From an uncultured Candidatus Saccharibacteria bacterium (lineage in GTDB: Bacteria > Patescibacteriota > UBA1384 > CAILIB01), in NCBI GenBank assembly GCA_964593885.1, contig CAZQKK010000001.1, forward strand, positions 105,929 through 169,928: a stretch of DNA of 64,000 nucleotides, read 5' to 3'. The translations under genes and the position numbers were made by a program. The notes beneath the pieces are model-generated. The model had not been told where the DNA came from. It saw only the letters and a list, made by a program, of their open reading frames with translations, and did no database searches. This document shows positions 831 to 54,202 of the stretch, piece after piece (within the stretch, counting starts at the first letter, position 1; each line of letters opens with the position of its first letter).

Positions 831-1907
831 ATGTCAAATATGCTTGGTGACTCGCTCGCCAAAACCCGCACTCGCTACATTGCCACCCTCGGTCCTGCAA
901 GCAGCAACCGTGAGGCCATGGAAAAGCTCATCCTCGCCGGTGTTACCATGTTCCGTAACAACTTCGCCCACGCCCAGTACGATGAGTACCGTGAGAGGAT
1001 GCAGATCCTCAAAGACCTCAACGCAAAGCTTGGCACCAATGTACTCATGCAAGCTGACATCCAGGGAACCAACATCCGGGTTGGCATGCTCCCACCAGAT
1101 GGCAAAATGGAACTCACCGAGGGTCATACCTACGTCTGCGTTACCAATGGTGGTGAACTTGGCGAGGGCGAGATCCCTATCAACGATGACCACCTCCACA
1201 CCGAGGTAAAAGTAGGTGAGCCTTTCACCTTTGCTGATGGCGCCATTGAGGGAACCGTCACTGCTGTAGATGGACACAAGATCACCGTTGAGGTTATCAA
1301 TAGTGGCATCCTTAAACAGCGCAAGAGCATCAATGTCCCAGAGACAGATCTCAACCGCTCGTGTATCACCGATAAGGACAAGAAAGACCTCGATTTCCTC
1401 ATTAACGATGCAGGCGTAGACTGGCTAGCCCTCTCATTCGTTGCAAACGCAGCTGAGATTGAAGAGGTGAGGCAGCTCATTGGTGACAAGCCAATCAAGA
1501 TCATGAGCAAGATTGAGCGAAAGAAGGCAATTGAGAACATGTACGAGATCATCAAAGCTTCAGACGCTGTCATGATTGCGCGAGGAGACCTTGGTATTGA
1601 GGTTCCTATGGAGGAGGTGCCAATTATCTCCAAGCAAATGATTGCCATGGCTCACCAGCTTGAGACCCCCGTGGTTACCGCAACCCAAATGATGCTTTCC
1701 ATGGTCCACTCAGCCCGCCCAACCCGCGCTGAGGTATCAGATGTAGCAAATGCCATCTTCGATAGGACTGATGCCGTGATGCTCTCAGAGGAAACCGCCG
1801 AAGGTGTCCACCCCGACCTCGCTCTCGCAACTATGGTAAAGATCTCCCGTCGCGTAGAGGACTACATGTACGGCAGGCCAAACTACTTCGAGCAACACGA
1901 GAAGTAG
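831..1907 (+). CDS. pyk: Pyruvate kinase (short, 358 aa; appears to lack the C-terminal regulatory domain)
   Basis: N-terminus RTRYIATLGPASSNREAMEKLILAGVTMFRNNFAHA matches the PK signature (K-I-x-T-x-GP-A-S..N-x-R-x-N-FSHG). Barrel-domain motifs MIARGDLGIEVP are present. Confidence 0.85.
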   Translation: MSNMLGDSLAKTRTRYIATLGPASSNREAMEKLILAGVTMFRNNFAHAQYDEYRERMQILKDLNAKLGTNVLMQADIQGTNIRVGMLPPDGKMELTEGHTYVCVTNGGELGEGEIPINDDHLHTEVKVGEPFTFADGAIEGTVTAVDGHKITVEVINSGILKQRKSINVPETDLNRSCITDKDKKDLDFLINDAGVDWLALSFVANAAEIEEVRQLIGDKPIKIMSKIERKKAIENMYEIIKASDAVMIARGDLGIEVPMEEVPIISKQMIAMAHQLETPVVTATQMMLSMVHSARPTRAEVSDVANAIFDRTDAVMLSEETAEGVHPDLALATMVKISRRVEDYMYGRPNYFEQHEK

Positions 1908-1920
1908 AAAAAACAAAAAA

Positions 1921-1949
1921 AACCACCCCGGGAAGGGTGGTTTTTCTTT
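1921..1949 (+). terminator. Rho-independent terminator after pyk
   Basis: AACCACCC-cgggaa-GGGTGGTT 8 bp stem followed by a TTTTTCTTTC run. Confidence 0.7.
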
Positions 1950-2330: not shown

Positions 2331-3095
2331 TTAGTTAGCTGAAGCGGAACTGGTAGCGGTAGGACTTGGACTGGCACTTGAAGCAGCATCACGTGAGTCT
2401 TTGAGTGCCTTAATGTCTACCTTCACCACTGCCTTCCAGTACTCCCGTGCATCTTTGAGGGCGTCCCTGAAGGCTTTGTACTCGGTCTTACTTGCTGAAA
2501 GCTGCTCCTTAAAGGCTCCCTCAGATTCCCCACAGGTGTATGCCTCTGTAGCGGTGAGCGAGGCGCTATAGGCAGCAAAGGTACTCTTCACCAAGTCAGC
2601 CTTACCCTTGAAGGTTGCAAGGTCTGCATCTAGCTTTGCGGTGTTGTACCCAGCAGCAGCCAGCTTCTTACTCAACTCTGTGGCGCGTGTGTAGAGCCTA
2701 TCCTGGTTGTCGAGGTGTTTCTGCTTGGCTGTCTCGTGACGGGTGAGCACAGCAGCAATCTTTGTCTCAATTTTCTCACACCCAGCAGCTAGACGTGCCT
2801 CACGGGTTTTTCTCTCATCTTTCTCGGATTCAGTCTCATTCTCCTGCTCTTCGGTTGACTTACGCTTCTCCAAGTTTTCAGTCTTCAACTTTGCCTTTTC
2901 GGCCTTCTTGAGTGCCTCAGCAGCCTTCTTGGCTAGCTCAGCCTTCCTTTCGGTAAGTTCAGTGGTGCTTGATTTTCCCGAGCCTGATCCTGATCCAGAA
3001 CCTGAGGATTCACCGTCTTTACCAAAGGTAAGCGTAGGCACTGAGGCCAGCAACATGACAAGCACGAGAGTTGAGTAGAGGAGTTTCTTCTGCAT
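2331..3095 (-). CDS. Secreted coiled-coil protein (signal peptide, GSGSGSGSG linker, K/E/A-rich helical region)
   Basis: Signal-peptide-like N-terminus MQKKLLYSTLVLVMLLASVPTLTFG. Highly charged heptad-like sequence with no recognised catalytic motif. Confidence 0.5.
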   Translation of the reverse strand: MQKKLLYSTLVLVMLLASVPTLTFGKDGESSGSGSGSGSGKSSTTELTERKAELAKKAAEALKKAEKAKLKTENLEKRKSTEEQENETESEKDERKTREARLAAGCEKIETKIAAVLTRHETAKQKHLDNQDRLYTRATELSKKLAAAGYNTAKLDADLATFKGKADLVKSTFAAYSASLTATEAYTCGESEGAFKEQLSASKTEYKAFRDALKDAREYWKAVVKVDIKALKDSRDAASSASPSPTATSSASAN

Positions 3096-3142
3096 GAAAG
3101 GTAATTCTTACAGGTTGAGTGTAGACATTATACCACAGCTTC

Positions 3143-4435
3143 CTAGGCTTCTGGCTTGCCCATCGCTTGGTTCATCAGAATTTTTGCGTGCTCTACTCCT
3201 GGCTGATCGTAAGCATTCACATCCCAGAATTCGCCACCGTAAGCAGTGGCAAGCTCAAAGAAGTAGAGGAGCATGCCCACGTGGTAGGCATCTAGCTTCG
3301 TAACCGATAGCTTCAAGCTTGGCCTTCCTTCTCGGTGGAGAGCTTCGGCTGTTGCGTCTGCCTCGTGAGAAACCACATCTTTCATCTGCTTACCCGCAAG
3401 GTAGGAAATGCTTGGGATATCTGGGAATGCCTCAGGGAGCTCAAGGTTCACAAAACTCTCATCAACAGTAAGGAAGGTGATGATCTTATCCTCGGGACCC
3501 TCTATGTAGAGCTGTACCTGAGAGTGTTGATCGGTAGGCCCCACTGCAGCCACCGGAGTTGGACCTGTGTTCACTACCTTTCCAGACCTATCAAGCTTCT
3601 TCCCTAAACTTTCAGCCCAGATTTGGCGGTACCAGAGACCCAGCTCACGCATGCTGTAGGTGTAGGCGAAGAGAACACTTATAGGCCTTCCCTCAAGGTA
3701 GGCAAGGTACTGGTGGTAGGCAAACTTGAGTGGAAGGCTAGCTTCTTTATCCTTTGCATCTTCTGCTGCAATTTCCCTCGCCCCAGCCAGCATCTGGCTC
3801 ACATCGATTCCTGCAAGAGCTAAGGGGAAGAGCCCTACTGCTGAGAGAACTGAAAACCTTCCACCAACATCTGGTGGCACAGAGAGGCTGCGGTAACCCT
3901 CTTGGTTGGTAAGCTTCCTAAGGAGGCCAGTTTCTGGGTCAGTTACGGTAATAATTCGCTGCTGGGTTACCTCTTCGCCCACCTCTTTGAGCAACCTATC
4001 TCGCAAGAGGATGAAGGTTGCCATCTGCTCAAGGGTGTTCCCTGACTTTGAGATCATCACAACAGCTGTGGAGCTCAGGTCTACCACATCGAGGATTTCC
4101 TGGAGGGGAACCGGGTCGGTGGTATCGCCGGCAAAGAAGAGTTGTGGCCTACCGTTTCGGTACTCTGGCTTGAAGTTGTAGAACTGGTGGTTGAGCATGC
4201 GCTGAACCGCCCTCGCCCCAAGGTCTGAGCCCCCGATACCAACCACAATGACGCTATCAACCTCACTCGCAACTTGATCTGCTAGTTCAGTAATATCACC
4301 AACTGTTGCAAAAGGAAGCTTGCTAAATCCAAGCTTAGACTGGGAGATTTGCTGCTGAACTGCTTGGTAAGCCTCTGTTTCCCGCTCGGGTAAGAGCTTT
4401 CCTGGTGAGAAAAAATTTGAATCTAACGAAATCAT
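3143..4435 (-). CDS. pgi: Glucose-6-phosphate isomerase
   Basis: 430 aa ORF whose overall sequence resembles the PGI/SIS family (e.g. ...SVIVVGIGGSDLGARAV..., ...DQHSQVQLYIEGPEDK...). Confidence 0.75.
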   Translation of the reverse strand: MISLDSNFFSPGKLLPERETEAYQAVQQQISQSKLGFSKLPFATVGDITELADQVASEVDSVIVVGIGGSDLGARAVQRMLNHQFYNFKPEYRNGRPQLFFAGDTTDPVPLQEILDVVDLSSTAVVMISKSGNTLEQMATFILLRDRLLKEVGEEVTQQRIITVTDPETGLLRKLTNQEGYRSLSVPPDVGGRFSVLSAVGLFPLALAGIDVSQMLAGAREIAAEDAKDKEASLPLKFAYHQYLAYLEGRPISVLFAYTYSMRELGLWYRQIWAESLGKKLDRSGKVVNTGPTPVAAVGPTDQHSQVQLYIEGPEDKIITFLTVDESFVNLELPEAFPDIPSISYLAGKQMKDVVSHEADATAEALHREGRPSLKLSVTKLDAYHVGMLLYFFELATAYGGEFWDVNAYDQPGVEHAKILMNQAMGKPEA

Positions 4436-4453
4436 GAGGAGTTGGTTACTGGA

Positions 4454-5344
4454 CTACTCCAGTGTAACCCAAAACAGCCGCTGCTTGAGCCTTCTCAAGG
4501 CGCCTCTTGAGGCAGTAATGAGCATTGGTAGCTCCTGGAGCGAAAGTACCCATGCCACTTCCTCACTTGGAAGCACCACTGAGAGACCCCCTTGGACATC
4601 TAACCCAACCTGCACCACAGCGTTCTTTGGTTGCTGCTTTCGAATGCCCTCTAGCGCAAGCTGTTTCTGATCTGAGATAAGCTCGCTCTGGAGCAAGGAG
4701 ATCCCAAGCTGTTGAGCTACGGTGAGGGCTATAGGACTCTTGAGTGCAGTGAGGAGCTCAACCGCAATCCCTTCACTGTGTAGGCTCTCAATCACCTCTG
4801 GTGCATGGGGGTGGAGTGGGTAGAAACAGGCAAACACACCTAGCAAGCGCTTGGGTTGCTTCTGGGCAAGGAAGAGTGTGTACTTGCCCTCCTGTTGAAA
4901 CTGCCTGATGAGCGTCTGGACACTCATCCCAAGTTCAATGGCTTCCTGAGCCATGCAAGCTTCATCTCCCAGAATGTACCACGTCCTATCTAGCTTACCC
5001 ACGAGACCCAGGGGAGCAATCTGATCCACATCTACCTCCCTCACCATCAGCCCCATCGCCCGAGCCGCCTCAACAATTGGCCTGAAAGAAACTCCCCGAG
5101 CCTCTGCAGCTAACCCTGCCGCAAGCTGGAGAACCTGCTGCTTCACATCCATAGTCTGATCTTGGAAGGCAAAAAACTGGGCGAGCTCAGGTTTGCCGGC
5201 GTAGAAGAATGAGGTACTTGGAAAGACTACCGCTTGGAGCTGCGCCAGCTCAACGAGTGAGGCAATAGAGGGTATGTTAAACGACCCCTGTGCTTTGGCG
5301 TTGACGTCGGTGAGGATGCGTTGGAGGTACCAGTTGGTGAGCAT
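4454..5344 (-). CDS. Hypothetical protein (296 aa); possibly a DNA polymerase III delta-like clamp-loader subunit
   Basis: Long ORF with consistent codon usage and no signature motif I can identify with confidence. Confidence 0.4.
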   Translation of the reverse strand: MLTNWYLQRILTDVNAKAQGSFNIPSIASLVELAQLQAVVFPSTSFFYAGKPELAQFFAFQDQTMDVKQQVLQLAAGLAAEARGVSFRPIVEAARAMGLMVREVDVDQIAPLGLVGKLDRTWYILGDEACMAQEAIELGMSVQTLIRQFQQEGKYTLFLAQKQPKRLLGVFACFYPLHPHAPEVIESLHSEGIAVELLTALKSPIALTVAQQLGISLLQSELISDQKQLALEGIRKQQPKNAVVQVGLDVQGGLSVVLPSEEVAWVLSLQELPMLITASRGALRRLKQRLFWVTLE

Positions 5345-19349: not shown

Positions 19350-19464
19350 CCCCTAATCTGGTAACCTTTTCCTGTTGTAGCTGGGAGAGATCTGCGTCGC
19401 TTCGCGACATAGCTCCTCCCTCGTTCACCAAAAGAGAAAACTAGTTTTCTCTTTTGTCTCACTC

Positions 19465-28475: not shown

Positions 28476-29684
28476 TTAGTATTCTTCTTCCCAGTGCTGC
28501 ACTTCGATTACACTCGGCGTACTACTCAAATTAAAGACAGAGTTGATTATCGTCGTATTAATATTCACCGCAAAGGTTGCTCCAGTGGTTATCGCCATGT
28601 TGTTTGGACAGACAAGACCTCCGTTGATAGTAACGTTCGGGACACTCGTCATCGCCACGTTACCACCACCGAAGAATACCCCGTTAATAATCCACCTCCC
28701 TCCATTGAGTGCTGTGTTTCCTCCAACAAGGATGCCACTCTCGTTATTTCCCGGATTTAACACGTTGAAAGTCAACCTACTCGCAATGGCGTTACTCACC
28801 GAAAAGTTACTGGCAAAAACTAGGATACCGGTTAGGTTAACCACTGTGTTATTTGGTACTGAGGTAAGGCTGAAGGCGCTGCTCACGTAGGTAATCGGAC
28901 CAGGTAGGGTTATCGTTCCACCGGTTTGAATGAGGTTCCTGAAAGCCGTCCCTGTGTAGGTTGCATTTGCGCTGGTCTGGTAGTAGGCAAAGTCTACCGT
29001 TGGGATGGTAAGCGAACCAGGCGGTGGCGGAACGTTGTTTGCCTGAGTTCCTCCCGAAGTAACCGTTCCACCTGTCCTTGTGTAGTTCCCTACCGCAAGG
29101 AACTTTCCCGTACCAAGGTTCATATTGGCATTTGTCAGTGTCATGTTCCCCGTTGTATAGAGATCGCTGTTTGGTATTTGTGCCGTGCTGCTTCCGTTAC
29201 TAAAACTCATGTTGAAACCACTCACAATTGAAGCGTTCCCAAGGGTGCCAGTTGTGGGAGCTGAGTAGACCTCAGCCGTAACCTTTCGTTTTGCAGTGAA
29301 AGCCCCATTATCTGCCGTAGCATCAACCGTAATGGTTCCGTATCCTGCTCCTTTTACAGCGTTTGAAAGCATTGTTACGGTAAAACCCTGTCCTGCCTGA
29401 GGAGTGTTTGTTGCGGTGTAGGTGGTATTGAGAGCTCCAGCCCTCAGGGCATCAGCCAAGGAAGTATCTGTTTTGAGCTTATTCACCGCATGCACAATTC
29501 CTGCGTCAGCAGCGTAGTACGCGGTAATACCTTCACGTTGTGAGCGCGAGATCTTCGCCTCAAGTGCCGAAATACTCACCAAGGCTCCAACTCCAAACAA
29601 ACCAACCCCCAAGAGAATGAGAATGGTTGCCAGAGCGTAGCCGGATTTCTGCCTTCGTCCCATCAGAGTTAGCATGCTTTTCAC
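28476..29684 (-). CDS. PilX-like minor pilin/pilus-tip assembly protein (402 aa)
   Basis: N-terminal class III signal-like RRQKSG/YALATILILLGVGLFG, then a T/N/G-rich beta-rich region. It is the last gene of the pilin cluster. Confidence 0.5.
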   Translation of the reverse strand: MKSMLTLMGRRQKSGYALATILILLGVGLFGVGALVSISALEAKISRSQREGITAYYAADAGIVHAVNKLKTDTSLADALRAGALNTTYTATNTPQAGQGFTVTMLSNAVKGAGYGTITVDATADNGAFTAKRKVTAEVYSAPTTGTLGNASIVSGFNMSFSNGSSTAQIPNSDLYTTGNMTLTNANMNLGTGKFLAVGNYTRTGGTVTSGGTQANNVPPPPGSLTIPTVDFAYYQTSANATYTGTAFRNLIQTGGTITLPGPITYVSSAFSLTSVPNNTVVNLTGILVFASNFSVSNAIASRLTFNVLNPGNNESGILVGGNTALNGGRWIINGVFFGGGNVAMTSVPNVTINGGLVCPNNMAITTGATFAVNINTTIINSVFNLSSTPSVIEVQHWEEEY

Positions 29685-30265
29685 TAGTTCCTCCCCTGAA
29701 CGCTAGATTGCAGTTTGAAACTCTGAATGCCACCATCAGTGGTTGTGATTACCATCTGGATTACTTCGCTCCCGTAAAAGGCAAGTGAGCTGACGTACTC
29801 AGCGATATCTTGGGTACTAACCACAGCCGAAAGCGGGGTATTTCCCGATCCATCTAGCTCGTTCCAGCGCACCCTCACACTTGGTGCAGCCGCAAAGTAG
29901 TACTCTTTAACCTGGAGCTGGAGGGTAGTGCCGTTGAGGAAATACCTACGGTAGCTGAGGTCGTTGGCGTGACCATCCTCAAACTCAATTTGACCTGGTT
30001 GGGTAACGCTGGTATCTGCAGGATTCTGAGGCAGCACCGTCACCACCTGAGGCGTTTGGCGCAGCTCCCTACTCAACCTATCTACGGTAATCCGAGCGTT
30101 CTGTGAGATGTCAGCTTTACCCTGATCCAGCGACATGGACTTCTTAACCAGTGAGTAGATTGAAACCGTCGCAGCCACCAAGATACTTGAAACCATCACC
30201 GCTACCAGAAGCTCGGTGAGGCTGAAACCAGCTTTTCGTCGTGGATAACTAACTCTGTGAGGCAT
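29684..30265 (-). CDS. Type IV minor pilin/pseudopilin
   Basis: Prepilin motif KAG/FSLTELLVAVMV (Gly-1, Glu+5). Confidence 0.6.
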   Translation of the reverse strand: MPHRVSYPRRKAGFSLTELLVAVMVSSILVAATVSIYSLVKKSMSLDQGKADISQNARITVDRLSRELRQTPQVVTVLPQNPADTSVTQPGQIEFEDGHANDLSYRRYFLNGTTLQLQVKEYYFAAAPSVRVRWNELDGSGNTPLSAVVSTQDIAEYVSSLAFYGSEVIQMVITTTDGGIQSFKLQSSVQGRN

Positions 30266-30659
30266 AGGTACTCAAGCTGTAACTTCGTGATACAGTCCCT
30301 TCGGTCCAGTAAATGGTAACGAGAATCTTTTTAATCCCAAGGTCTGAACCACTGCTGGCAAAGGTTGCGGGATTCACGTACGACACCACCACCTCACGCT
30401 CATAGGCATTGAAGGGACTACTGGTATCCGAGCTCACCACCCCACGCGCGATGTAGGTACCAGTTGTGAGAGCGGCGTACGAATCATCTTTGAGGAGCTC
30501 AAGCTGCTCCTGCGCCAGAAAGGTAGCCTGGGTAGTACTTGCCGTCTGCTTCAGGAGCTTGCGGTTAGCCGGGAAAATTTGCAGCAAACTGACCATTCCA
30601 AAAATGAAGAGGGTGAGGGCGATGAGTAGCTCTAGGAATGTGAAGCCGTGACGTTTCAC
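30249..30659 (-). CDS. Type IV minor pilin/pseudopilin
   Basis: Prepilin motif RHG/FTFLELLIALTLF. Confidence 0.6.
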   Translation of the reverse strand: MKRHGFTFLELLIALTLFIFGMVSLLQIFPANRKLLKQTASTTQATFLAQEQLELLKDDSYAALTTGTYIARGVVSSDTSSPFNAYEREVVVSYVNPATFASSGSDLGIKKILVTIYWTEGTVSRSYSLSTYASQS

Positions 30660-31132
30660 TACTGCTCCCCAGTGTTTGTTCTGATGTTCCCCGAAGGTCT
30701 CACCTCAATGGTACGGGACTTACTCCGTATCGTATCGCGAAGGGTAAAGTTCCCACTCACCGAGGGTGCGCCAGCTGTACTGAACCTGATACTGTTGTTA
30801 CCTGAAAAGCTGACGGTTCCAACTTGAATATTTGAAGGTAGCGTTAATGTCTGCATTGTTACGTTATTCCCCGATCCATCAACCTGGAACATGACAACGT
30901 TGGTTGAGCCTGCGGTAACGGTGAAGCCATACACCACCTGCTCGGTAACCGTTCGCTGGGCGGCATAGCGGATGAGATCTGAGGTTTGATCAACCGCACT
31001 GTTGAGCTGCTGCTGAGAGAGCAAGAGCTGGTAGGTTGGCACCGTAAAGGTGGCAAGAATTGCCATCAGGGCAATGCTCACCATGAGCTCAACAACGGTG
31101 AAACCCCCCTTTGCAGTAGTAAACATACCCAT
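30659..31132 (-). CDS. Type IV minor pilin/pseudopilin
   Basis: Prepilin motif KGG/FTVVELMVSIALMAIL. Confidence 0.6.
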   Translation of the reverse strand: MGMFTTAKGGFTVVELMVSIALMAILATFTVPTYQLLLSQQQLNSAVDQTSDLIRYAAQRTVTEQVVYGFTVTAGSTNVVMFQVDGSGNNVTMQTLTLPSNIQVGTVSFSGNNSIRFSTAGAPSVSGNFTLRDTIRSKSRTIEVRPSGNIRTNTGEQ

Positions 31133-31644
31133 TAGTAGTTTTGCTCTTTAGGCGTGCAGTTCACGCAGTACCCAGGCACCGTTGGTGAAGCTTCGTGGGG
31201 AACGCAGGCACCGCTGATACAGTAGAAAATGGAACTGTTCCTGACAAAATTTGGGAAGAGTACTGGGTCGCTACAGGCACTGATGGGATCACTGTTGTCA
31301 CAGAGACGGTAGCTGATTTGGTACACCTTTGCCCCGTTGATGGTCCAGTTGTCCCAGTCAAATACCCCTGTTGGCCAGGCACTCTCAGGCCATGTCCCAC
31401 CCTGGAGGTAGTGCTCCAAACCCGGAGGTACTGAACGACTCGTGTCAGCGGGGTACTGGTAGTTGTTATCCTCAGCGTACTGACTGAGCGAAGTTGCAAT
31501 CTCGGTGAGCTCAGTGGTTACGCGTGAGAGTTTAGCCTTCTGCCGTGCTTTTGCAAGGTAGAGCACCGAGAGTGTCGCCAAAATGAGTATCACAACAATG
31601 ACAATGGTGATCTCAATAATCGTGTAGCCCCTACGCTTTTGCAT
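31132..31644 (-). CDS. Type IV major pilin (PilA-like), start re-assigned to ATG 31644
   Basis: MQKRRG/YTIIEITIVIVVIL prepilin leader with Glu+5. C-terminal Cys-rich D-region CISGACVP...CVNC. It is the first gene of the cluster. Confidence 0.6.
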   Translation of the reverse strand: MQKRRGYTIIEITIVIVVILILATLSVLYLAKARQKAKLSRVTTELTEIATSLSQYAEDNNYQYPADTSRSVPPGLEHYLQGGTWPESAWPTGVFDWDNWTINGAKVYQISYRLCDNSDPISACSDPVLFPNFVRNSSIFYCISGACVPHEASPTVPGYCVNCTPKEQNY

Positions 31645-31703
31645 AGCTACAGTATAGCACCACAACGCTGGAGCGAGGAGACAAATTCTGGCATACTTGC
31701 CGT

Positions 31704-32675
31704 ATGCCTGAAACTACCCAAACCCCCGAAGCCTACGATGTCCTGATCATTGGAGGAGCCTGTGCCGGTCTCGCCGCCGCAACCTACGCCGCGCGCAGAG
31801 CGATGAAAACCCTTGTGATCACCAAAGACATTGGTGGACAAATTGCTACCACCCCAAGTGTTGAGAATTACCCAGGTATTGATTTCATTACCGGCCCTGG
31901 ACTCTCGCAAGACATGCTGGTTCAGGCTCAAAAGTGGGGTGCTGAGGTAGTCTACGACGAAATTACCTCAATAGAGAAGCTTGGCGAGCGAAACTTCAAG
32001 GTTACCGGTTTCCAGAATAGCTTCACCGGAAAGTCACTCATTGTGGCGTACGGCAAAACTCCCCGTTCGCTCAACATTCCAGGTGAGCGAGAGTACGGTG
32101 GGCGCGGAGTCTCCTACTGTGTCACCTGCGATGCGCCACTCTACCGCAACCGCACCACCGTGGTAGTTGGAGGTGGAAGCTCCGCCATGGAGGGCGCCCT
32201 CATCTTGGCAAAGATCTGCACCAAGGTGTACCTCGTGCACCGCAGAGATGAGTTTAGGGGCGAAGCAGTACTCCTGGAACAGATTCAAGCTGAGCCAAAG
32301 ATTGAGCTCGTTCTCTCACACACGCCAGATGAGGTACTTGGGGATGGTGAGTACGTCACCGGGCTGCGGGTAAAGTCTACAAAAAGTGGTGAGACCAAAG
32401 ATCTCCCCGTTGAGGGGGTATTTGTTGAGATTGGGTTTGTGGTGAATAGCGGTCTCATCAAGCACCTAGTAGATCTGGATAAGATGAACCAGGTCATTAC
32501 CAATAAGCGGATGGAAACGTCTACACCTGGAGTATTTGCCGCGGGAGACCTCACCGATAGTCCCTACAAGCAGGCAGTTATCTCAGCAGGTGAAGGAGCA
32601 ACGGCTGCCCTCACCGCGTACTCGTACGTGAATGATGGGAAACCCGCAGGAGTCGACTGGAGTGGGAGTCACTAA
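31704..32675 (+). CDS. trxB: Thioredoxin reductase
   Basis: FAD motif VLIIGGACAGLAAA, redox-active CVTCD, NADPH motif VVVGGGSSAMEGA. Confidence 0.9.
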   Translation: MPETTQTPEAYDVLIIGGACAGLAAATYAARRAMKTLVITKDIGGQIATTPSVENYPGIDFITGPGLSQDMLVQAQKWGAEVVYDEITSIEKLGERNFKVTGFQNSFTGKSLIVAYGKTPRSLNIPGEREYGGRGVSYCVTCDAPLYRNRTTVVVGGGSSAMEGALILAKICTKVYLVHRRDEFRGEAVLLEQIQAEPKIELVLSHTPDEVLGDGEYVTGLRVKSTKSGETKDLPVEGVFVEIGFVVNSGLIKHLVDLDKMNQVITNKRMETSTPGVFAAGDLTDSPYKQAVISAGEGATAALTAYSYVNDGKPAGVDWSGSH

Positions 32676-32706
32676 GAGCTCCTCACTAGTCCTCGCAACC
32701 AAAAAT

Positions 32707-32852
32707 AGTTGCTGCGGAGTCGTTCGTCGCTCTTGTGACTCCCACAAGAAAGCCTCACAGTCACTACACTACTGTTTTCCTGGCAATCGTCGGAACAAAA
32801 GTGTTCCTGCGGAGTCGTTCGTCGCTCTTGTGACTCCCACAAGAAAGCCTCA
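32707..32852 (+). repeat. Two-unit tandem direct repeat of 51 bp (one mismatch) separated by a 44 bp unique spacer; each unit has two mutually exclusive hairpins
   Basis: Unit GTT[G/C]CTGCGGAGTCGTTCGTCGCTCTTGTGACTCCCACAAGAAAGCCTCAC at 32707-32757 and 32802-32852. Hairpin A GGAGTC...GACTCC, hairpin B CTTGTG-actcc-CACAAG. Confidence 0.6.
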
Positions 32853-32912
32853 CCCAAGCACCAGCTAAGTAGCGTATAACAATATCTACACCTCCACAGG
32901 TATCTCACGAAG

Positions 32913-32983
32913 CGTTTAATAAAAAACAACGCCTCCGCAGTAACACTTTTGTTACGAGGACAGCGTTGTTTTTTTATTAAACG
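32913..32983. terminator. Large bidirectional hairpin (20 bp AT-rich arms, 30 nt loop) at the 3' end of the L,D-transpeptidase gene
   Basis: CGTTTAATAAAAAACAACGC...GCGTTGTTTTTTTATTAAACG. The loop contains CTCCGCAG, complementary to CTGCGGAG in the upstream repeats. Confidence 0.5.
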
Positions 32984-32990
32984 GTGAGTT

Positions 32991-34430
32991 TTAGTGGATA
33001 ACCACTTTCGTTCCAATATCAGACCAAGCGTACACTTCTTCTGCGTCACCAATACCAAACCTTACACACCCATGTGATGCTCGTCTACCAAGGCTTCGTG
33101 CACCCTCTTTAATCCCGTTTGGTCGCTCTGGAAGTTCGTGGAGACCGTACTGCCCCGCTGGGAGTATGTCACCGTTGTCTGCAGTGCCAAGGAGGTTCTG
33201 CCAGTACGGCATGTAGAGTTTGTAGGTTCGGGAAAATGCCCGCGGGTGCTTGCTCCCAACGTAGAAGGTGCCAATTGGGGTGGGACGAGACCATGTTCCT
33301 GAGGAAATTTTGTACACTTTCTCTAGCGTGTTGCCATTAATCCGGTATGCTTTCTGTTCACTAATATTTACCTCAACGTACTTTCCTTCAAACCTCCCTA
33401 GGGTGTAGCTTCCTGCGGTAACAACTTCCTTTGGCTTTAGGGTGAGGGCAACTGTCTTGCTTGCCGGTGCCTTTACGGCTTCCCTACTCGCACTCTCTTC
33501 TGAATCACTTAGAGCTGCAACAACAAGCTTGAGACTCTTCGAAACATCAATTAGTTTACCTGCTTTTGAGGTGAGGTAGGTTGAAACAGCAGACTCGTTG
33601 GTATCTAGTGAGAGTTCGCCGGCATCACCCTGAACGATGGTGTACCAGCTGAGAATTTCTTTGCGGGTTGGAACGAGAGCTACACCTTCAGCACCTAGGT
33701 TGAGTTTGAGGTTACCGAGGTTATCAAGCTGGGTAGCAAGTGGCTGAATCTTTGCCCTCGTAACATCTGATGATTGCTGGCTGGTTTCTGCTCGCAGGTA
33801 GGTTGCCACATCGCCATCAAGTGCTGTTGGGATAACTGCAGCAAGTTTTACCGCCATTGCATCAGTGTCTACCACCTGTCCAGGTTTTTCATCTGAAACA
33901 ACAACCTTATCACCATCAATTTTGAGGGTAGCTGCTACCGGTTGCACCAGCTTTGGGAGCACCTTGGTTGAGATAAACTCATCTGCTTTTGCCGGATCAA
34001 CACTGTAGACTAGTGGTACGTTTTTCCCGTTGAAGAAGGTTGGGATGGCAGAGGTTGCCCAATCAAGGAGGTTAGTCTGGTGCCCGGTTACCCACCCAGT
34101 TAGCTGAGCGTTCTCCTCCTCCATTTCAAGTCCAAGCTCTGCTGCAGTTCCACTCACCTCAATGTCTGGGTACTGACCAGTGGTGACATCTCTATCCTTA
34201 CTAATATCTGGGATGGTAACCACCACTGTGTGAGAGGCGTAGCTTGCAACACGCTCAGCAACCTTCTGCTTTCCCTGAGCCTCGGTGAGGCCCCCAACCT
34301 GGACGCCTGCTACGCGCACCCCTGGGTAGAACCTATCACGGTAGTAGGCAGCAGCAACACCAAGACTTGCCGCTGAGAGAGAGACGAATACGAGCAACGT
34401 GATGAGGGTGAGTTTGAGGAAGCGAGGCAT
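32991..34430 (-). CDS. L,D-transpeptidase (YkuD domain) with N-terminal membrane anchor and VanW/YoaR-like region
   Basis: C-terminal catalytic motif SHGCVRF and YkuD-like GTFYVGSKHP...YKLYMPYWQNLLG. Confidence 0.75.
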   Translation of the reverse strand: MPRFLKLTLITLLVFVSLSAASLGVAAAYYRDRFYPGVRVAGVQVGGLTEAQGKQKVAERVASYASHTVVVTIPDISKDRDVTTGQYPDIEVSGTAAELGLEMEEENAQLTGWVTGHQTNLLDWATSAIPTFFNGKNVPLVYSVDPAKADEFISTKVLPKLVQPVAATLKIDGDKVVVSDEKPGQVVDTDAMAVKLAAVIPTALDGDVATYLRAETSQQSSDVTRAKIQPLATQLDNLGNLKLNLGAEGVALVPTRKEILSWYTIVQGDAGELSLDTNESAVSTYLTSKAGKLIDVSKSLKLVVAALSDSEESASREAVKAPASKTVALTLKPKEVVTAGSYTLGRFEGKYVEVNISEQKAYRINGNTLEKVYKISSGTWSRPTPIGTFYVGSKHPRAFSRTYKLYMPYWQNLLGTADNGDILPAGQYGLHELPERPNGIKEGARSLGRRASHGCVRFGIGDAEEVYAWSDIGTKVVIH

Positions 34431-34438
34431 CTGAGAAG

Positions 34439-34984
34439 TTAGACCAAGTTAGCTTCATCTATAGCAGCAAACACGTGTCTCACCAACTGTTTGGGATCTT
34501 CGTGCATGATTACCCTCCCCATTCCTCGGTGTGCCATCTTGAGGATAACCGGGATTTCATCAATGGTGCCCCCGCTGTGGAGGAGGATGCCAATGATCAT
34601 GTGGCGCTCGAAAGCGTGGGTGAACTCGTGCAGGGTTCCCACCCTCCCACTAATCTCAATCACCGCATCGGCCATATCAATGAGGGTGATGTCCCTCCCG
34701 GCGTAGTCTTGGCCGGTAAAGAACATGGTGTCATGGTACTGCACTGGAAGGCGGTACTTCTTGGTGTGCTCTAGGAGGCTGTTAGCAGGCGAAAAGCCTA
34801 TCACCTCCCCCCTCACAGATTTTGCCCCTCGTGCCGAGGCAAGTGGAATACCCGTGGTTGCGCCGGTAAGGACAATACCTCCGTGGATGGCAATCTGTTT
34901 GCCAACCTCGTGGGCGAGAGCTTCGCCTTGCTCACCAGCCTCACCTCCTGCAGCACCTGAGATGGCAATCTTTGGGTCAAACAT
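34439..34984 (-). CDS. SLOG/LOG-like Rossmann-fold protein (TIGR00725/YgdH-like)
   Basis: 181 aa with GGIVLTGATTGIPLASARGA...GFSP...GRVGTLHEF, resembling LOG-family/TIGR00725 glycine-rich loops. High GC, unlike the upstream two genes. Confidence 0.55.
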   Translation of the reverse strand: MFDPKIAISGAAGGEAGEQGEALAHEVGKQIAIHGGIVLTGATTGIPLASARGAKSVRGEVIGFSPANSLLEHTKKYRLPVQYHDTMFFTGQDYAGRDITLIDMADAVIEISGRVGTLHEFTHAFERHMIIGILLHSGGTIDEIPVILKMAHRGMGRVIMHEDPKQLVRHVFAAIDEANLV

Positions 34985-36146
34985 TAGATGCTCGTTTAAA
35001 TGAAGTTACTACGTAGTGGATTGCCTGAATCAAGCCAGGAATGTAACGCTTAAACCTTTCATCCTCGGCTTCATCAGCTATCTCTGCTGCGTATGAGCTC
35101 AACTTATCTAGGGTGATCTGATCGATGGTATCCAACAGGTAGTGAATTGAAACCGGATTGAGGATGAGGTCAATTCTTGGGTACGACCTTAAGAACCTGT
35201 AGAGGACTTCGGTAAAGTTGTTGATATCAGTCTGCTTGAGTGCAAGGTTGTAGAGCGCCTGTGAAACCTGGTTACTTGAGATATTCTCAAGTGAAAAGCA
35301 GCTCTCAACGTCTGCATACAGCTTTTCATTGGCAGCAGCTGGCATCTCCCCAGAATTCACAAGACGAAGCGCTTCAAGTCTATCAACAAGCCGCTTACCG
35401 TACGTTATCCTCAGCTGTTCAAGGAGTAAGACTTCTGTAGGAAGTTCACCATTATTTGCAGTGATAACACCAAGTGTTGATACCACCCTGAACAGGAACA
35501 TCTGAAGCTCAAACATTCTCTCAGGCATTAGAAAATCCTGAATAGTTTCATCAGGGACAAAACTGAGGTCCTTGAGGAAAGCTTGTATTTCGGATTGCTC
35601 AACTTGGCTAATTCCCTGATCCAACTGCATCCTTTCACCTACAAGCTCCAAATGTCTCTGCGCATCTTTCTGCATTGAACGAACCTGTTCGATTTGCATG
35701 TTTTGCGACTCAATCGAAGAAAGGAGCACCTTCTCTTGGAGAAATTCTGTAGCACCAACTAACACCGTTAAGCTATGCCAGAAGTTAACCTGTCTATTTG
35801 CCCATTCAGAAATATCAGGTGGGAATGCTGGAAGATCTTCCGGGATCAGTTTTTCTTCGATGAGTTTTTTTCGTACTGAACCAGCACTGTAGAGTGCGAA
35901 GAGTGAAAGGTGGTAGAGAAAGGTACCAGCATCAATGTGAAAAAGTGCTCCAAGGTTATTTATTTTGAGGTACGACTCAATTTCAGCTGAGAAAACTGGG
36001 AGGAAGTCATTTACAACCCGAAACACAATCGCTCGCTCGTTTGGCTCTAGCGCTTTCACATACTCAATAGTATCTTCATCACTCGGTGAAGTTCTCAACC
36101 AACTCAGTATTTCTTGGCTCAGCTGTGCGAGTTCTTGATCATTCAT
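34977..36146 (-). CDS. Hypothetical cytoplasmic helical protein (389 aa), AT-rich codon usage, translationally coupled on both sides
   Basis: No TM segments; acidic, leucine-rich. Start overlaps the upstream 1286 aa gene's stop by 4 nt, and its stop overlaps the SLOG gene's start. Confidence 0.5.
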   Translation of the reverse strand: MNDQELAQLSQEILSWLRTSPSDEDTIEYVKALEPNERAIVFRVVNDFLPVFSAEIESYLKINNLGALFHIDAGTFLYHLSLFALYSAGSVRKKLIEEKLIPEDLPAFPPDISEWANRQVNFWHSLTVLVGATEFLQEKVLLSSIESQNMQIEQVRSMQKDAQRHLELVGERMQLDQGISQVEQSEIQAFLKDLSFVPDETIQDFLMPERMFELQMFLFRVVSTLGVITANNGELPTEVLLLEQLRITYGKRLVDRLEALRLVNSGEMPAAANEKLYADVESCFSLENISSNQVSQALYNLALKQTDINNFTEVLYRFLRSYPRIDLILNPVSIHYLLDTIDQITLDKLSSYAAEIADEAEDERFKRYIPGLIQAIHYVVTSFKRASNV

Positions 36147-39100
36147 GGGTTACCTCCGCCATTTTGAGCGTCTGATTGCTCGGTAACCTTAAACGCATTT
36201 GTTGGGTAATCACCAATATTATTATCAATTTTCGTACCCATACTATTGTCTCCACGATAATTTTCAGTGACAACCGTATTCCAAGCATCACGCGACGTAA
36301 ACTTTGCATCAATAATTTTTTGCAACCCCGCATCAGGACCTATAACTTTCATAAGTTGCACAGCAGCACTCTTTGTTGATTTATAGTTTGATCCTCCATC
36401 TTTAATCATTTTATGAAGGCTAAGTATCCTAGCAACGCGCTTCTGATGTTCTTTTAGTGTCTTAACGTCAGTGCTTGATGGATCTAAGACACCCTTACCA
36501 TCAATAATATCTCGGTAGACAGCGCCATTCTCAACCATTTTATCGCTAAAGGCCTCATTCACGATATCATCACGCCCAATGTATGCCTTCACGTACTGAT
36601 CTGTGCGCTTAAGGGCATTCTTGTGCTCCTCTGCCATCAAACGAATTTTGGATTCTTTCTCAGGATCGTTACCAGCCATCGCAGATATCGCTGCTTCTCC
36701 TTCAGAAGCTGCCTTAGCTGCTTTTATGTACGTATCATCAACAAGAATACGCCTGTCATAGTGTTCTTTCTGATCTTTTTCATCGTCATTTGCAATTTCT
36801 TGTCGTGCACTTGCTTGGTTGACTGTCACTTGCCTGCGTTCCGATGCCATTAGGGCTGCACCAGTCTTCATCTGCCCATCTGATGTCTTAATACCTGAGT
36901 AATTCGCAGCACGTGCTCTCGCTAACTCAGCTTTAGCAATTTGGGTTGCACTCTGCGTGTCTTTCACAAGTGCGTACTCCTTGTTGTACTTCTTCCCTTG
37001 CTTACTTTTGAAGTCTTTAGCTAGCTCTTCTTCTGCAAACGCGGTAACACCTTCTTGGACTGATTTATCAAGATCATGCTCTAGGTGGCGCATGATGTTC
37101 TTTTTCTGGCGGGCCGCATTAACCCTATTTGCCCTCTTGTTATTGATCTTCTTCATTTCCTTATCCAACTCATCTTCAATCTCCTCGATTTTTTTCTCGT
37201 ACTGAAGCTGTGTAAGCTTGTTATCTGCAAAGTCTTTCTGAGCCTTAGCCCGTGCCTCATTTGCGTGTTCTTCAGCATGTTCAGTTGCCTCAGCCTGCTT
37301 CTTTGCAGATCTAAGATTAATGCCGCTTTCAGAGGCCTTCAACTTTCCTTGGCGTTCTTCAACGTAATTTTTACCCCAGCGCTTCAGATCACCGTAGCGC
37401 GAGAGATTTTGAGCAGTCATGTACCTGTCTTTCAAATCTGCTTTCACTGCCTTGCCGGCGGCTCCTCCTGTGGCACCCCATGCCTGTTTCCCCATACCCT
37501 GCCACTTGTCCATGACCATTTTCGCTTCTCCTGAGAGTGAACCTACTGACGACTTAATTGCTGTGACCATACAGACCATCCCAAAGAGGTAGCCAAGGAT
37601 ACTTCCAAAGGCACTTTGTGCAGTTGAAGATGTTGCAGTGAAAAATTGGAAGGCAAGCCACAACCAGAAGCTTGCAATGAGAGGCATCAACAGCCAGTTG
37701 AAGAAGTTTTTTGACCACTGCTTCCAGATAAAACCAATTGGTTTTACAGCTGCTGAGAAGAACGCAAGTGCGGATAGAGGTGTTAGGAAGTAGAAGACAA
37801 TAGACCTAATCACAAAGAGAAACGCAAGAATAAATACGATTACTGCTGCTGCAATAATAAATAAGTTTAGCGTTGCCTGCTTCATTACCAGACCAGATTT
37901 CACCAAACCGGTTGCCTGATCATAGAAGAATGTAACCTTATCCGCTCCACCAATATTACTAAGGCTCTGGGCAAGTTGGTTGATATCATACCCTCCAAGT
38001 GCAAAGAATTCTGTTACATAGCTTGTCGCCTCCATCACACCTCTGATCACGAAAATACTTGCATTGGCAAGTATCAATCCAATCACTAGTTGAGGGAACA
38101 TCTTGCTAATCTGGTATGTTGATACCTGAATCTGCAAGATGTTTGAAAGTGCAATAAAAATAAAGAAGAGAAGGAGAATAAAGTTTACTAGCGTTAAAAT
38201 GAGCGAGTGAGTCTTGCTAATTATTTTTCCTACATCATTTGTTGTTGATCCGATGATACTTTCTGGCGGTGTTCGTATTTCAACAGGAACAAGAAAATCA
38301 AACATACTATCACTTGATTCATCCGTTGAGGGTACTCTTCCACTAAACCCAGCTGTTTGAGCAAGCATATTGAGCGATGACCTAAGGAGGTATTCTGAAA
38401 ATTCTTGAACAGCAATACTCACTACACACAGAATCTGCATAAACCCATTAGCCGTTAAAAAACCTGGCGACTGCTCATTTCCACATCTGTCAGCAGATTG
38501 CAACCTCCCGGAAAGAGCATTCATTTTTTTTGCAACTTCGCCATTTAAAAACTGTGCAACATTCTTACCGACACCGATAACTTGATTAACTGTATTAACT
38601 TCGGCGGTTGCAAACATCTGATCCTTACTGATCTCTGGGTCAAGTACTTCACTTGCAGCAGTTCTAATAACACCATTACCCCCACTTGAGAGCAGACTTT
38701 CCCGTATTGGGTTTGCTTGACCTTTTGTTGTCGCAAGGAGCATCGCCGATTCAGCCATCATCCAATACGCCTGTGATAGTGGTTTCAAATTGGTTGAGTA
38801 CGTATTGTAAACGTTCGCTCCACTCAACTGAATTTCATTTTTTGCAAATGAAACGAGAGCACTTGTTCCGGCACCAAGAACAGCAAAAGTGCCAAATGCT
38901 TGAAGAGCAATTGGTGCAGCAATAGATAGCGCCAACCAAATTCCACTTAAGCTAGCCCCTCCTGTAAAGACTGCAAGCAGTACTGACCCAATAATGATTA
39001 TTCCCGCTGCCACCGCACCTGCAATCAATCCCGCTTGAGCTGCATCACGGGCTGCATCTACCATCATTTCATAACTAATCATTCTACTCCCAAGGTACAC

Positions 39101-40003
39101 CTTCGACCCAAGCTTCTCGTAAAGCGGGTTTACAGGAGTACCATCTTCTTTTACTACTTCCGGCCCAGGAGTAAGTAGAAACTTCGCAGCAAGAACAACT
39201 GCTTGAAATGCAGCATTGTAGAGCATTTGAGAAGCAGCAAAGGACTCCTCCATGCATTTTTTTGCTTCTTCTTTTGTGAAGCCTTCAGTTGCAAGATCAA
39301 AGGTTGACCAGTCATAACTTGCTTTTCCTTTGCTAGCACCTAAGAGCTGATCATACTTAGCCTGTATCGGATATTTTTTTCCCCCTTCAACTGGCACTCT
39401 TACCGTTACTTCTGTTTCCTCACGATCATGTTTTAACGTGATTGTTTTATTCTCGTACTCACACGGAACTGGATCAACATTCCCAGAAGTACCTATCTGC
39501 TTTTTTAGGTTTTCATTGATAGTGTAAGGTATAGAATTTGCGTTTGCTGCAGCTTGATTTATCTCAATGCACTGATTTGAGGAATTTGGAAAATCAGGCG
39601 TTGCGTTGGCATACGTTGGGTTATTATTCCTCTTACAAAAGAGAATCTTATCCTCAAGTACCCAGCTCAATTTTGAGACGTAAAGCTTTGGATCTGTATT
39701 CTGTACGCCAGCATCTTTAAAGGCTTGATCGCCGTAGTCTTTTAGCGGACCTGTCCCCCGATAATTATTACGAAATGCAATGCATAATGGAGTATTTGCT
39801 TCTTCGCTTCTGGGATTTTCAGTACCTACCTCACAAAACGAGGTAGCGCTAGCTTTTGACCACGCCCACTCATTTGAAGCAGCCTTCGCACGCTGCACAA
39901 AGCCATCTAAATCTGTAAGGTTGAGGATAAGAAAATTGGAAACAAAAAATGCGAGTAGAAGTACCCCTAGCTTCTTTGCGTATTTCCTCATATGTACCAT
40001 CAT
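36143..40003 (-). CDS. Giant polytopic membrane protein (1286 aa): signal-anchor, Cys-containing extracytoplasmic domain, about 10 TM helices in three clusters, about 450 aa K/E/A-rich coiled-coil tail. VirB6/TrbL-like topology, but no homology established
   Basis: Uninterrupted 3.86 kb ORF at about 40% GC. Hydrophobic clusters at residues about 330-390, 590-640 and 690-800. C-terminal tail of heptad-like charged repeats. Confidence 0.6.
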   Translation of the reverse strand: MMVHMRKYAKKLGVLLLAFFVSNFLILNLTDLDGFVQRAKAASNEWAWSKASATSFCEVGTENPRSEEANTPLCIAFRNNYRGTGPLKDYGDQAFKDAGVQNTDPKLYVSKLSWVLEDKILFCKRNNNPTYANATPDFPNSSNQCIEINQAAANANSIPYTINENLKKQIGTSGNVDPVPCEYENKTITLKHDREETEVTVRVPVEGGKKYPIQAKYDQLLGASKGKASYDWSTFDLATEGFTKEEAKKCMEESFAASQMLYNAAFQAVVLAAKFLLTPGPEVVKEDGTPVNPLYEKLGSKVYLGSRMISYEMMVDAARDAAQAGLIAGAVAAGIIIIGSVLLAVFTGGASLSGIWLALSIAAPIALQAFGTFAVLGAGTSALVSFAKNEIQLSGANVYNTYSTNLKPLSQAYWMMAESAMLLATTKGQANPIRESLLSSGGNGVIRTAASEVLDPEISKDQMFATAEVNTVNQVIGVGKNVAQFLNGEVAKKMNALSGRLQSADRCGNEQSPGFLTANGFMQILCVVSIAVQEFSEYLLRSSLNMLAQTAGFSGRVPSTDESSDSMFDFLVPVEIRTPPESIIGSTTNDVGKIISKTHSLILTLVNFILLLFFIFIALSNILQIQVSTYQISKMFPQLVIGLILANASIFVIRGVMEATSYVTEFFALGGYDINQLAQSLSNIGGADKVTFFYDQATGLVKSGLVMKQATLNLFIIAAAVIVFILAFLFVIRSIVFYFLTPLSALAFFSAAVKPIGFIWKQWSKNFFNWLLMPLIASFWLWLAFQFFTATSSTAQSAFGSILGYLFGMVCMVTAIKSSVGSLSGEAKMVMDKWQGMGKQAWGATGGAAGKAVKADLKDRYMTAQNLSRYGDLKRWGKNYVEERQGKLKASESGINLRSAKKQAEATEHAEEHANEARAKAQKDFADNKLTQLQYEKKIEEIEDELDKEMKKINNKRANRVNAARQKKNIMRHLEHDLDKSVQEGVTAFAEEELAKDFKSKQGKKYNKEYALVKDTQSATQIAKAELARARAANYSGIKTSDGQMKTGAALMASERRQVTVNQASARQEIANDDEKDQKEHYDRRILVDDTYIKAAKAASEGEAAISAMAGNDPEKESKIRLMAEEHKNALKRTDQYVKAYIGRDDIVNEAFSDKMVENGAVYRDIIDGKGVLDPSSTDVKTLKEHQKRVARILSLHKMIKDGGSNYKSTKSAAVQLMKVIGPDAGLQKIIDAKFTSRDAWNTVVTENYRGDNSMGTKIDNNIGDYPTNAFKVTEQSDAQNGGGNP

Positions 40004-53930: not shown

Positions 53931-54005
53931 GGCGCTATCGTCTATCGGTTAGGACGCCAGGTTTTCATCCTGGTAAGACGGGTTCGACTCCCGTTGGCGC
54001 TACCA
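53931..54005 (+). tRNA. tRNA-Glu (anticodon TTC), 75 nt with encoded CCA
   Basis: Anticodon stem CCAGG/CCTGG with loop TTTTCAT, T-arm ACGGG-TTCGACT-CCCGT, acceptor with two G-U pairs, discriminator A + CCA. Confidence 0.8.
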
Positions 54006-54007
54006 AA

Positions 54008-54040
54008 GAAAAAAGGTCAACCTCACGGTTGTCCTTTTTT
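54008..54040 (+). terminator. Terminator-like hairpin with T-run after tRNA-Glu
   Basis: AAGGTCAACC-tcac-GGTTGTCC followed by TTTTTTC. Confidence 0.45.
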
Positions 54041-54202
54041 CTTTGCGTTTCTCTAGTGGAAGAGAACCCGGAGGGTTCGCTCGCGCTTCTCGCGTGAGCA
54101 AGCGCAGCGCTGCAGACGAGAAAGCGTCGCCGAAGGCGTAGACCGTTGGCACAAGTACCTAAGGAATCCGATATACTATCCTTGCTATAACCACACACCC
54201 AC

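Follow-up and report, generated by a model that had tools for sequence, protein, structure and literature searches.

A clade-specific, locally duplicated stem-loop cluster, probably a transcription stop and 3'-end structure, between convergent trxB and ykuD genes

Stem-loops in the trxB/ykuD spacer

Within the window, by which we mean the whole 64-kb stretch of DNA that was analysed, the thioredoxin-disulfide reductase gene trxB (31704-32675, + strand; Pfam Pyr_redox_2, 1.9e-40, with homologues labelled thioredoxin reductase by JGI) converges with a gene for a ykuD-type L,D-transpeptidase (32991-34430, - strand; Pfam YkuD, 3e-21, together with PG_binding_4). The 315-bp intergenic spacer is made up of three modules: a long hairpin that begins in the end of trxB (HP1), a tandem unit (unit B) and a second long hairpin next to the ykuD stop codon (HP3). 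The apices of all three are copies of one ~30-nt module, here called the a module, in the orientations +, + and -, and the order of the parts along the DNA can be written as b' - a - b - a - b - a'. The earlier note on this DNA had proposed folding the region on both strands, and the whole spacer is much more structured than its shuffles on each of them (z = -6.1 and -5.5). Both strands fold about equally well, so that G-U pairs assign the element to neither. Coding potential was rejected for the spacer, as the + strand has no ATG, the substitutions relative to an orthologous locus (L001, introduced below) do not fall in threes, and the read-through frames differ. The spacer contains no promoter-like site, and an origin, a terminus or a dif-type site was rejected because there is no GC-skew switch.

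The part of the spacer nearest trxB had been described in the earlier note as two 51-bp units that differ by one mismatch and flank a 44-bp spacer. This description holds, and read in this way the units lie at 32708-32758 and 32803-32853. Extended slightly, the units become a direct repeat whose two 57-nt copies (32702-32758 and 32797-32853, 95 nt from start to start) are 95% identical; a 47-nt core (32712-32758 in unit A) is the same in both, and is found two times in the window and in none of 100 shuffles. A gapped alignment lengthens the tandem similarity to 79 nt for unit A (32680-32758, + strand) and 76 nt for unit B (32778-32853, + strand), leaving merely ~19 nt of unique sequence between the copies (32759-32777). 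This unique segment starts with AGTCACTA, which is found also at the end of trxB (32667-32674). Two hairpins that had been proposed within each unit, GGAGTC-15 nt-GACTCC and CTTGTG-ACTCC-CACAAG, are present in the sequence, but neither is retained in L001.

A further pairing, absent from the earlier note, links the 3' part of each unit (GCTCTTGTGACTCCCAC) with the last bases of trxB (GTGGGAGTCACTAAGAGC, stop codon included): the two are complementary over 11 + 6 nt with one bulge. In the case of unit A, this complementarity gives HP1, an imperfect hairpin of 85 nt (32662-32746, + strand). Its 5' arm runs from the final codons of trxB through the TAA stop into the adjoining spacer sequence, the a module of unit A sits at the apex, and the remainder of unit A makes up the 3' arm; the outer portion of the 5' arm corresponds to the last 14 nt of trxB. 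With a minimum free energy of -41.9 to -42.1 kcal/mol (z = -5.75), HP1 is more stable than any of 200 shuffles, and it is without a U-tract. Unit B is a gapped copy of the distal half of HP1 that lacks a good 5' arm, and its fold is not significant (z = -1.9). It is followed by a variable linker (32854-32912), of which ~20 nt can be aligned in L001, the window/L001 alignment containing 61 gap columns here.

HP3 (32913-32983), which has the appearance of a bidirectional intrinsic terminator, begins 59 nt downstream of unit B and ends 7 nt from the ykuD stop. Its arms lie at 32913-32932 and 32964-32983, it contains CTCCGCAG, and it comprises ~29 pairs with two internal loops and a CUUU apical loop, with minimum free energies of -30.5 kcal/mol (+ strand; z = -7.55) and -31.5 kcal/mol (- strand). 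It is preceded by an A-run and followed by a T-run (AAAAAACAACGC...GCGTTGTTTTTTT), such that either strand reads a hairpin and then a U-tract; the G+C-rich part of the stem is confined to an inner ACGC/GCGT. The downstream hairpin that the earlier note had placed 60 bp away is thus real and terminator-like, but the 30-nt loop ascribed to it folds further into a 3-bp and a 6-bp helix closed by the 4-nt CUUU loop, and the complementarity of its interior to unit B extends over 33 nt at 88%, not 8 nt. A second stretch complementary to the interior, of 23 + 15 nt, covers unit A and the sequence flanking it on the left. Judged by its sequence, the interior repeats the 5' part of the unit for a third time, in inverted orientation, well beyond an 8-mer match. 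A simple terminator scan of the window did not list HP3 because its stem has internal loops, which the scan disallows. Terminators with the same design of A-tract, hairpin and T-tract, each shorter than HP3, are found elsewhere in the window (1915-1948, 19429-19456 and 54004-54045).

The a module has the form GTCCTCG, a mini-stem of 5-6 bp with a loop of 4-9 nt, and CTGCGGAG, which at the RNA level reads GUCCUCG, stem-loop and CUGCGGAG(G). Copy A (32689-32719, + strand) has GTCCTCG, a GCAAC..GTTGC stem and CTGCGGAG; copy B (32785-32814, + strand) has ATCGTCG in the first position, then GGAACA-AAAG-TGTTCC and TGCGGAG; and copy C (32933-32961, - strand), inverted relative to the other two, makes up the top of HP3. 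The module was turned into a covariance model (R1), which, run on the window with filters off, scored the three at 54.3 bits (E = 5e-13), 55.1 bits and 57 bits, respectively, and found no others in the 64 kb, the next match being at 10 bits. An alignment of the six detectable copies from the window, L001 and a further relative, L013, has 95% of its cells paired, versus 33-53% when the partners are slid, and the closing pair of the module varies between G-C, C-G and U-A. A 25-nt stretch of copy B is the exact reverse complement of the apex of the L001 terminator. While the neighbouring stems covary, CCTCCGCAG, the CTTT apical loop and the GTCCTCG/CTGCGGAG flanks are nearly or fully invariant. 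A possible likeness of GGAACA-N4-TGTTCC to a LexA box, parS or matS was dropped, as spacing and context misfit and the stem of copy A differs.

Conservation, stem compensation and loss among relatives

Orthologous loci in metagenome assemblies were reached via homologues of trxB and ykuD. The full arrangement of HP1, a second unit at 95-nt spacing and HP3 is present in L001-L003 (trxB 93% identical in amino acids, spacer 238 bp), in the same orientation as in the window. L013 and L014 (97%, sister of the window, spacer 70 bp) have one unit with a weaker HP1 and no HP3, and a sister of L001, L029 (GCA_965609665.1; 92%, spacer 93 bp), has HP3 only. Beyond these, no recognisable element is found in L004 and L005 (89%, spacer 28 bp), in L006 (88%, 22 bp) or in L011 (77%), where the two genes overlap; the module is absent as well from L009 and L010 (79%), which carry two unrelated inserted genes at the junction, and from L012 (79%), in which a Fic and Phd/YefM pair replaces ykuD. 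The outgroup spacers at the trxB/ykuD site are thus 0-28 bp long and have no hairpin, and in all that was searched the element is confined to one site in one small clade.

Pairwise identities group the four lineages as ((window, L013), (L001, L029)), with the states full, HP1 only, full and HP3 only. Because of this distribution, the full element would most simply be ancestral to the four lineages, with two independent partial losses, and at least one long hairpin is retained in each of them. The left junction, TCGCTA or TCACTA followed by GTCCTCG, is common to the window, L001 and L013, and this indicates a single ancestral event.

Conservation of the element can be set against the divergence of its neighbour. 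The trxB genes of the window and L001 are 80% identical in DNA and 48% identical at third-codon positions, which is near saturation. Between the same two loci, the HP3 core is identical at 34 of 37 positions and the region of unit A at 83% (alignment columns 47-110), whereas the sequence between the units is unalignable. This pattern matches purifying selection on the modules with neutral decay between them, and does not require a turnover of the kind seen in CRISPR spacers. Despite the saturated divergence between the units, their spacing is 95 nt in both loci. Units A and B also have lineage-specific states in common inside each genome, which suggests gene conversion or parallel constraint.

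The stems themselves show compensatory evolution. In an RNAalifold consensus of the window and L001, 11 of 58 pairs are preserved via changes on both sides, and these belong to HP1 (its b':b stem) and to HP3 (outer stem and apical stem). HP1 contributes at least four of these pairs, and its b':b stem is compensated although b' is coding. L001 has the same HP1 architecture (z = -3.9), as does L013 in a weaker form, even though the C-terminal codons of trxB differ. HP3 is strongly structured in each lineage that has it (z = -7.6 in the window, -11.4 in L001 and -9.8 in L029), and it overlaps the ykuD stop in L001 and L029. The apical stem of HP3 alternates between TAACA/TGTTA, GAACA/TGTTC and CTACA/TGTAG among the window, L001 and L029, with L029 adding two further compensated pairs, and the outer stem differs but still pairs. 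What the compensatory changes preserve is the local mini-hairpins and not a duplex between the units and the terminator; for example, HP3 of the window has T-A where unit B has G-C.

The favoured reading and a possible recognition role

We propose that the trxB/ykuD spacer is a clade-specific, locally duplicated stem-loop cluster that serves as a transcription stop and 3'-end structure for both genes, and we put the probability of this reading at roughly 60%. HP3 would be a bidirectional intrinsic terminator, stopping RNA polymerase that arrives from either the trxB or the ykuD side. HP1 would be a protective or processing structure at the 3' end of the trxB mRNA and, for read-through from ykuD, a second barrier. 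Unit B would be a partial tandem duplicate of HP1, and the top of HP3 would be the same ~30-nt hairpin top duplicated in inverse orientation; both the activities and the order of the duplications are inferred. Such inverted and tandem duplication of a hairpin top would explain why the locus presents a "repeat" and a "loop complementary to the repeat". The proposal also accounts for the positions adjoining the stops, for the covariation of the stems and for the presence of either hairpin alone in sister lineages.

HP3 resembles bidirectional intrinsic terminators in its A-tract and T-tract flanks, in the hairpin and U-tract read on both strands, in its location past two convergent stops and in the compensatory change seen in its orthologues. 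Compensatory evolution of stems has been reported for the terminators of Bacillus cereus (PMC5381666), and the stems of HP3 evolve in the same manner. HP3 differs from bidirectional intrinsic terminators in its ~29 pairs, in the invariance of its unpaired bases and loop, and in the fact that its top is duplicated twice, inverted, upstream.

A plain terminator requires structure only, and several findings speak against so simple a description. Unpaired bases, the apical loop and the module flanks are invariant beside covarying stems, the spacing of 95 nt is identical in two lineages at saturated divergence, and the outgroups are without any hairpin at this junction. The invariance of unpaired bases next to covarying stems, and the fact that the module is read in the same orientation right after each of the convergent genes, would fit a module that is a sequence-specific recognition element, acting through a protein or through RNA-RNA pairing as a clade-specific 3'UTR regulatory device. 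We regard this as unlikely. In one form of it, the upstream copies may compete with the terminator and so regulate antisense read-through into ykuD, the cell-wall gene. Should the invariant unpaired bases reflect a binding partner, the module could be a new clade-specific 3'UTR signal, and nothing that we found requires this.

A more specific version of this idea is an attenuator or antiterminator, in which the 5' part of unit A or unit B would pair with the 5' half of HP3 and tune antisense read-through into ykuD; alternatively, the element could give a 3'UTR-derived small RNA in which one recognition module is present twice. A structured RNA and a tandem attenuator had both been put forward in the earlier note, and they were reasonable options. 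As in known terminator/antiterminator attenuators, the 5' half of HP3 has a possible pairing partner upstream (33 nt at 88% for unit B, and 23 + 15 nt for unit A). In addition, the region is strongly structured on both strands, the bases that the local hairpins leave single-stranded do not vary between lineages, and the two units share lineage-specific states in each genome. However, while the alternative pairing is available in the window, the compensatory changes favour the local mini-hairpins over the long-range duplex. In L001, unit B has lost the 5' half of the module and goes undetected by the covariance model, and since L013 is without HP3 and L029 without the units, the supposed partners are separately dispensable. 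Unlike attenuators, the element lies downstream of both genes, with no co-directional gene beyond it, so that there is no gene to switch on, and the spacer has no promoter-like site. An attenuator or a small RNA with this pairing is therefore, in our estimate, rather unlikely, and for a sequence-specific role of any such kind, be it an antitermination switch or a protein-binding site, we see a small chance.

Under the favoured reading of a duplicated stem-loop cluster with a role in termination and 3'-end structure, the feature is real, conserved and narrowly distributed, and is at the same time a fairly ordinary piece of genome architecture. It offers a small and clean example of how a compact genome, Patescibacteria-like to judge by the labels of its homologues, may build, and then partly lose, 3'-end structures between convergent genes, with the four lineages providing a stepwise record (full, HP1 only, HP3 only) accompanied by compensatory evolution of the stems.

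Dispersed repeats, DNA sites and CRISPR arrays

Could the cluster instead be a mobile palindrome of the REP/BIME or MITE kind, that is, a member of a dispersed ~30-36-nt family whose copies entered a 3' intergenic hotspot in alternating orientations? The module is alike in being an imperfect palindrome of ~30-35 nt that forms a mixed-orientation cluster (+ + -) in 3' intergenic DNA between convergent genes, with a proposed dual role in termination and stabilisation. REPs consist of hundreds of dispersed copies and are associated with RAYT transposases. These elements belong to enterobacteria, and in E. coli those located between convergent genes are reported to terminate transcription and to stabilise mRNA (bioRxiv 10.64898/2026.03.23.713779). 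The outermost copies, at 32689-32724 and 32928-32961, also resemble terminal inverted repeats of ~34 nt, and the junction is an indel hotspot in relatives, as seen from the two inserted genes in L009 and L010 and the Fic/Phd pair in L012.

The distribution of the module argues against such an origin. Neither three motif patterns (with as many as 3 mismatches allowed) nor k-mer counts nor the covariance model turned up a dispersed copy in the 64-kb window (three local copies at 54-57 bits, the next match at 10), and no module was found at non-orthologous places in ~59 kb of the relatives' loci. IMG/VR, GTDB representative genomes and JGI metagenome contigs, collections from which the window's own clade is apparently absent, were then covered by pattern scans: GTTNCTGCGGARTCGYTCGTCG gave 0 viral, 2 genome and 0 metagenome matches, the two reading as chance, and a gapped module pattern gave 0 viral matches and 14 in metagenomes that we also ascribe to chance, most of them like coding DNA of unrelated G+C-rich organisms. 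One similar-looking metagenome hairpin (L017), the only such match checked for ORFs, lies inside a 547-aa ORF and was rejected. The earlier note had asked whether the repeat recurs elsewhere, and no copy thus turned up in the window, the relatives' loci or the scanned collections. The module differs from REPs in occurring at one locus in all that was searched and in having no sequence similarity to them. A MITE was rejected despite its terminal-repeat-like inverted repeat, as no target-site duplication is seen flanking 32689 and 32961, the window holds no other copies and the left junction is common to the window, L001 and L013. We consider a REP- or MITE-like origin improbable. A DNA uptake sequence was rejected too, there being no k-mer enrichment in the window. 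A search of Rfam, suggested in the earlier note, revealed no relevant family: at the gathering threshold it reported two tRNAs in the window and nothing at the element, and at E values up to 10 the matches in 32500-33200 were two plant miRNAs that we regard as noise.

As G-U pairs show no strand preference, a DNA-level role of the element is possible. It might consist of sites for a site-specific DNA-binding protein or recombinase, or of an invertible segment, the inverted pair of copies (33-36 bp) bracketing a short segment of 108-203 bp, and the 95-bp spacing, ~nine helical turns, is identical in the window and L001. On the other hand, the window, L001, L002 and L003 all have the same orientation, L013 and L029 are each without one partner, no recombinase was found among the neighbouring ORFs tested, and the spacer shows neither a promoter-like site nor the GC-skew switch of an origin, a terminus or a dif-type site. 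Protein-binding sites or inversion at the DNA level are in our view very unlikely.

A degenerate or orphan CRISPR mini-array with a tracrRNA-like anti-repeat, the framing with which the earlier note began, is scarcely credible. CRISPR arrays contain several direct repeats of ~23-50 nt that all point the same way and alternate with unique spacers of about that length. With CRISPR arrays, CreA-like mini-arrays and tracrRNA anti-repeats the element shares a pair of direct repeats on either side of a divergent segment, which is not conserved between lineages, and a complement of the repeat nearby. It is unlike them in having two units only and an inverted third copy, in a repeat (51-79 nt) that exceeds the unique segment (19-44 nt, or ~19 nt in the gapped view), and in that half of the "repeat" can pair with the trxB stop region to give HP1; neither the orientation and spacing of repeats in an array nor spacer matches to mobile elements were found. 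In a blastn search, the spacer region had no match in phages and one 25-nt chance match in plasmids (E = 1), and an exact 24-mer of the spacer had 0 matches in IMG/VR, leaving no protospacer in any of the three; searches with the whole region were likewise without a meaningful match. Housekeeping genes and unknowns make up the 27 neighbouring and large ORFs tested with Pfam or PADLOC, and none of them gave a Cas or defence match. The earlier note's own judgement that this is not a real CRISPR was right. A repeat-spacer-repeat pattern with an "anti-repeat" can thus come from tandem and inverted duplication of a terminator hairpin, unrelated to CRISPR. The divergence of the supposed spacer fits neutral saturation, as gauged by the third positions of trxB (48%), and the same single orthologous site holds one unit or none in the sister lineages.

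Unit spacing and the core of the hairpins

The distance from unit to unit in the tandem pair of the trxB/ykuD spacer is exactly 95 nt both in the window (32712 to 32807) and in the related metagenomic lineage L001 (2749 to 2844), although the inter-unit sequences of the two cannot be aligned, and the third-codon positions of trxB are only 48% identical between them. The equal spacing could reflect either a length constraint or coincidence.

HP3, the terminator-like hairpin near the ykuD stop, has an invariant core (window 32931-32941; L001 2895-2905; approximately 3980-3990 in L029, a related lineage carrying HP3 only), which reads CCUCC on the + strand, similar to the anti-Shine-Dalgarno sequence, and GGAGG on the - strand, similar to the Shine-Dalgarno core. 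GGAG is also present in units A and B, and no plausible start codon was seen downstream.

A near-match to the module, the hairpin top common to both units and HP3, occurs in an unrelated soil metagenome contig (L017 2848-2877, GTCCTCGGAACAGCGATTGTTCCTGCGGAA) with a different loop; as it sits within a 547-aa ORF, we judged it to be a chance match.

The trxB/ykuD junction and its flank in relatives

In relatives, the counterpart of window ~32676-32990 is an insertion hotspot. Two more distant loci, L009 and L010, each carry two additional genes at the junction (93 aa and 494 aa; 2977-4739 in both), neither with a Pfam match, and in a third, L012, a Fic-domain protein and a Phd/YefM antitoxin (2961-3505) replace ykuD. 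The segment directly upstream of trxB (window 28476-31665) is occupied by a series of small genes that bear N-terminal methylation (type IV pilin-like) motifs and are oriented divergently to trxB; this synteny is retained in most relatives among the loci obtained via trxB or ykuD.

Other features of the window

G+C content falls to 43-47% at 34977-40003, versus 50-55% elsewhere in the window. This stretch holds two - strand ORFs, of 389 aa (34977-36146) and 1286 aa (36143-40003), without a match in Pfam or PADLOC; L029 keeps the same gene order as the window, namely a SLOG-domain protein followed by proteins of ~390 aa and ~1300 aa.

Another long convergent spacer (1908-2330), between ORFs 831-1907 (+) and 2331-3095 (-), contains a plain bidirectional terminator (1915-1948), directly followed by an imperfect inverted repeat of 27 nt with 49 nt separating its arms (1950-2052).
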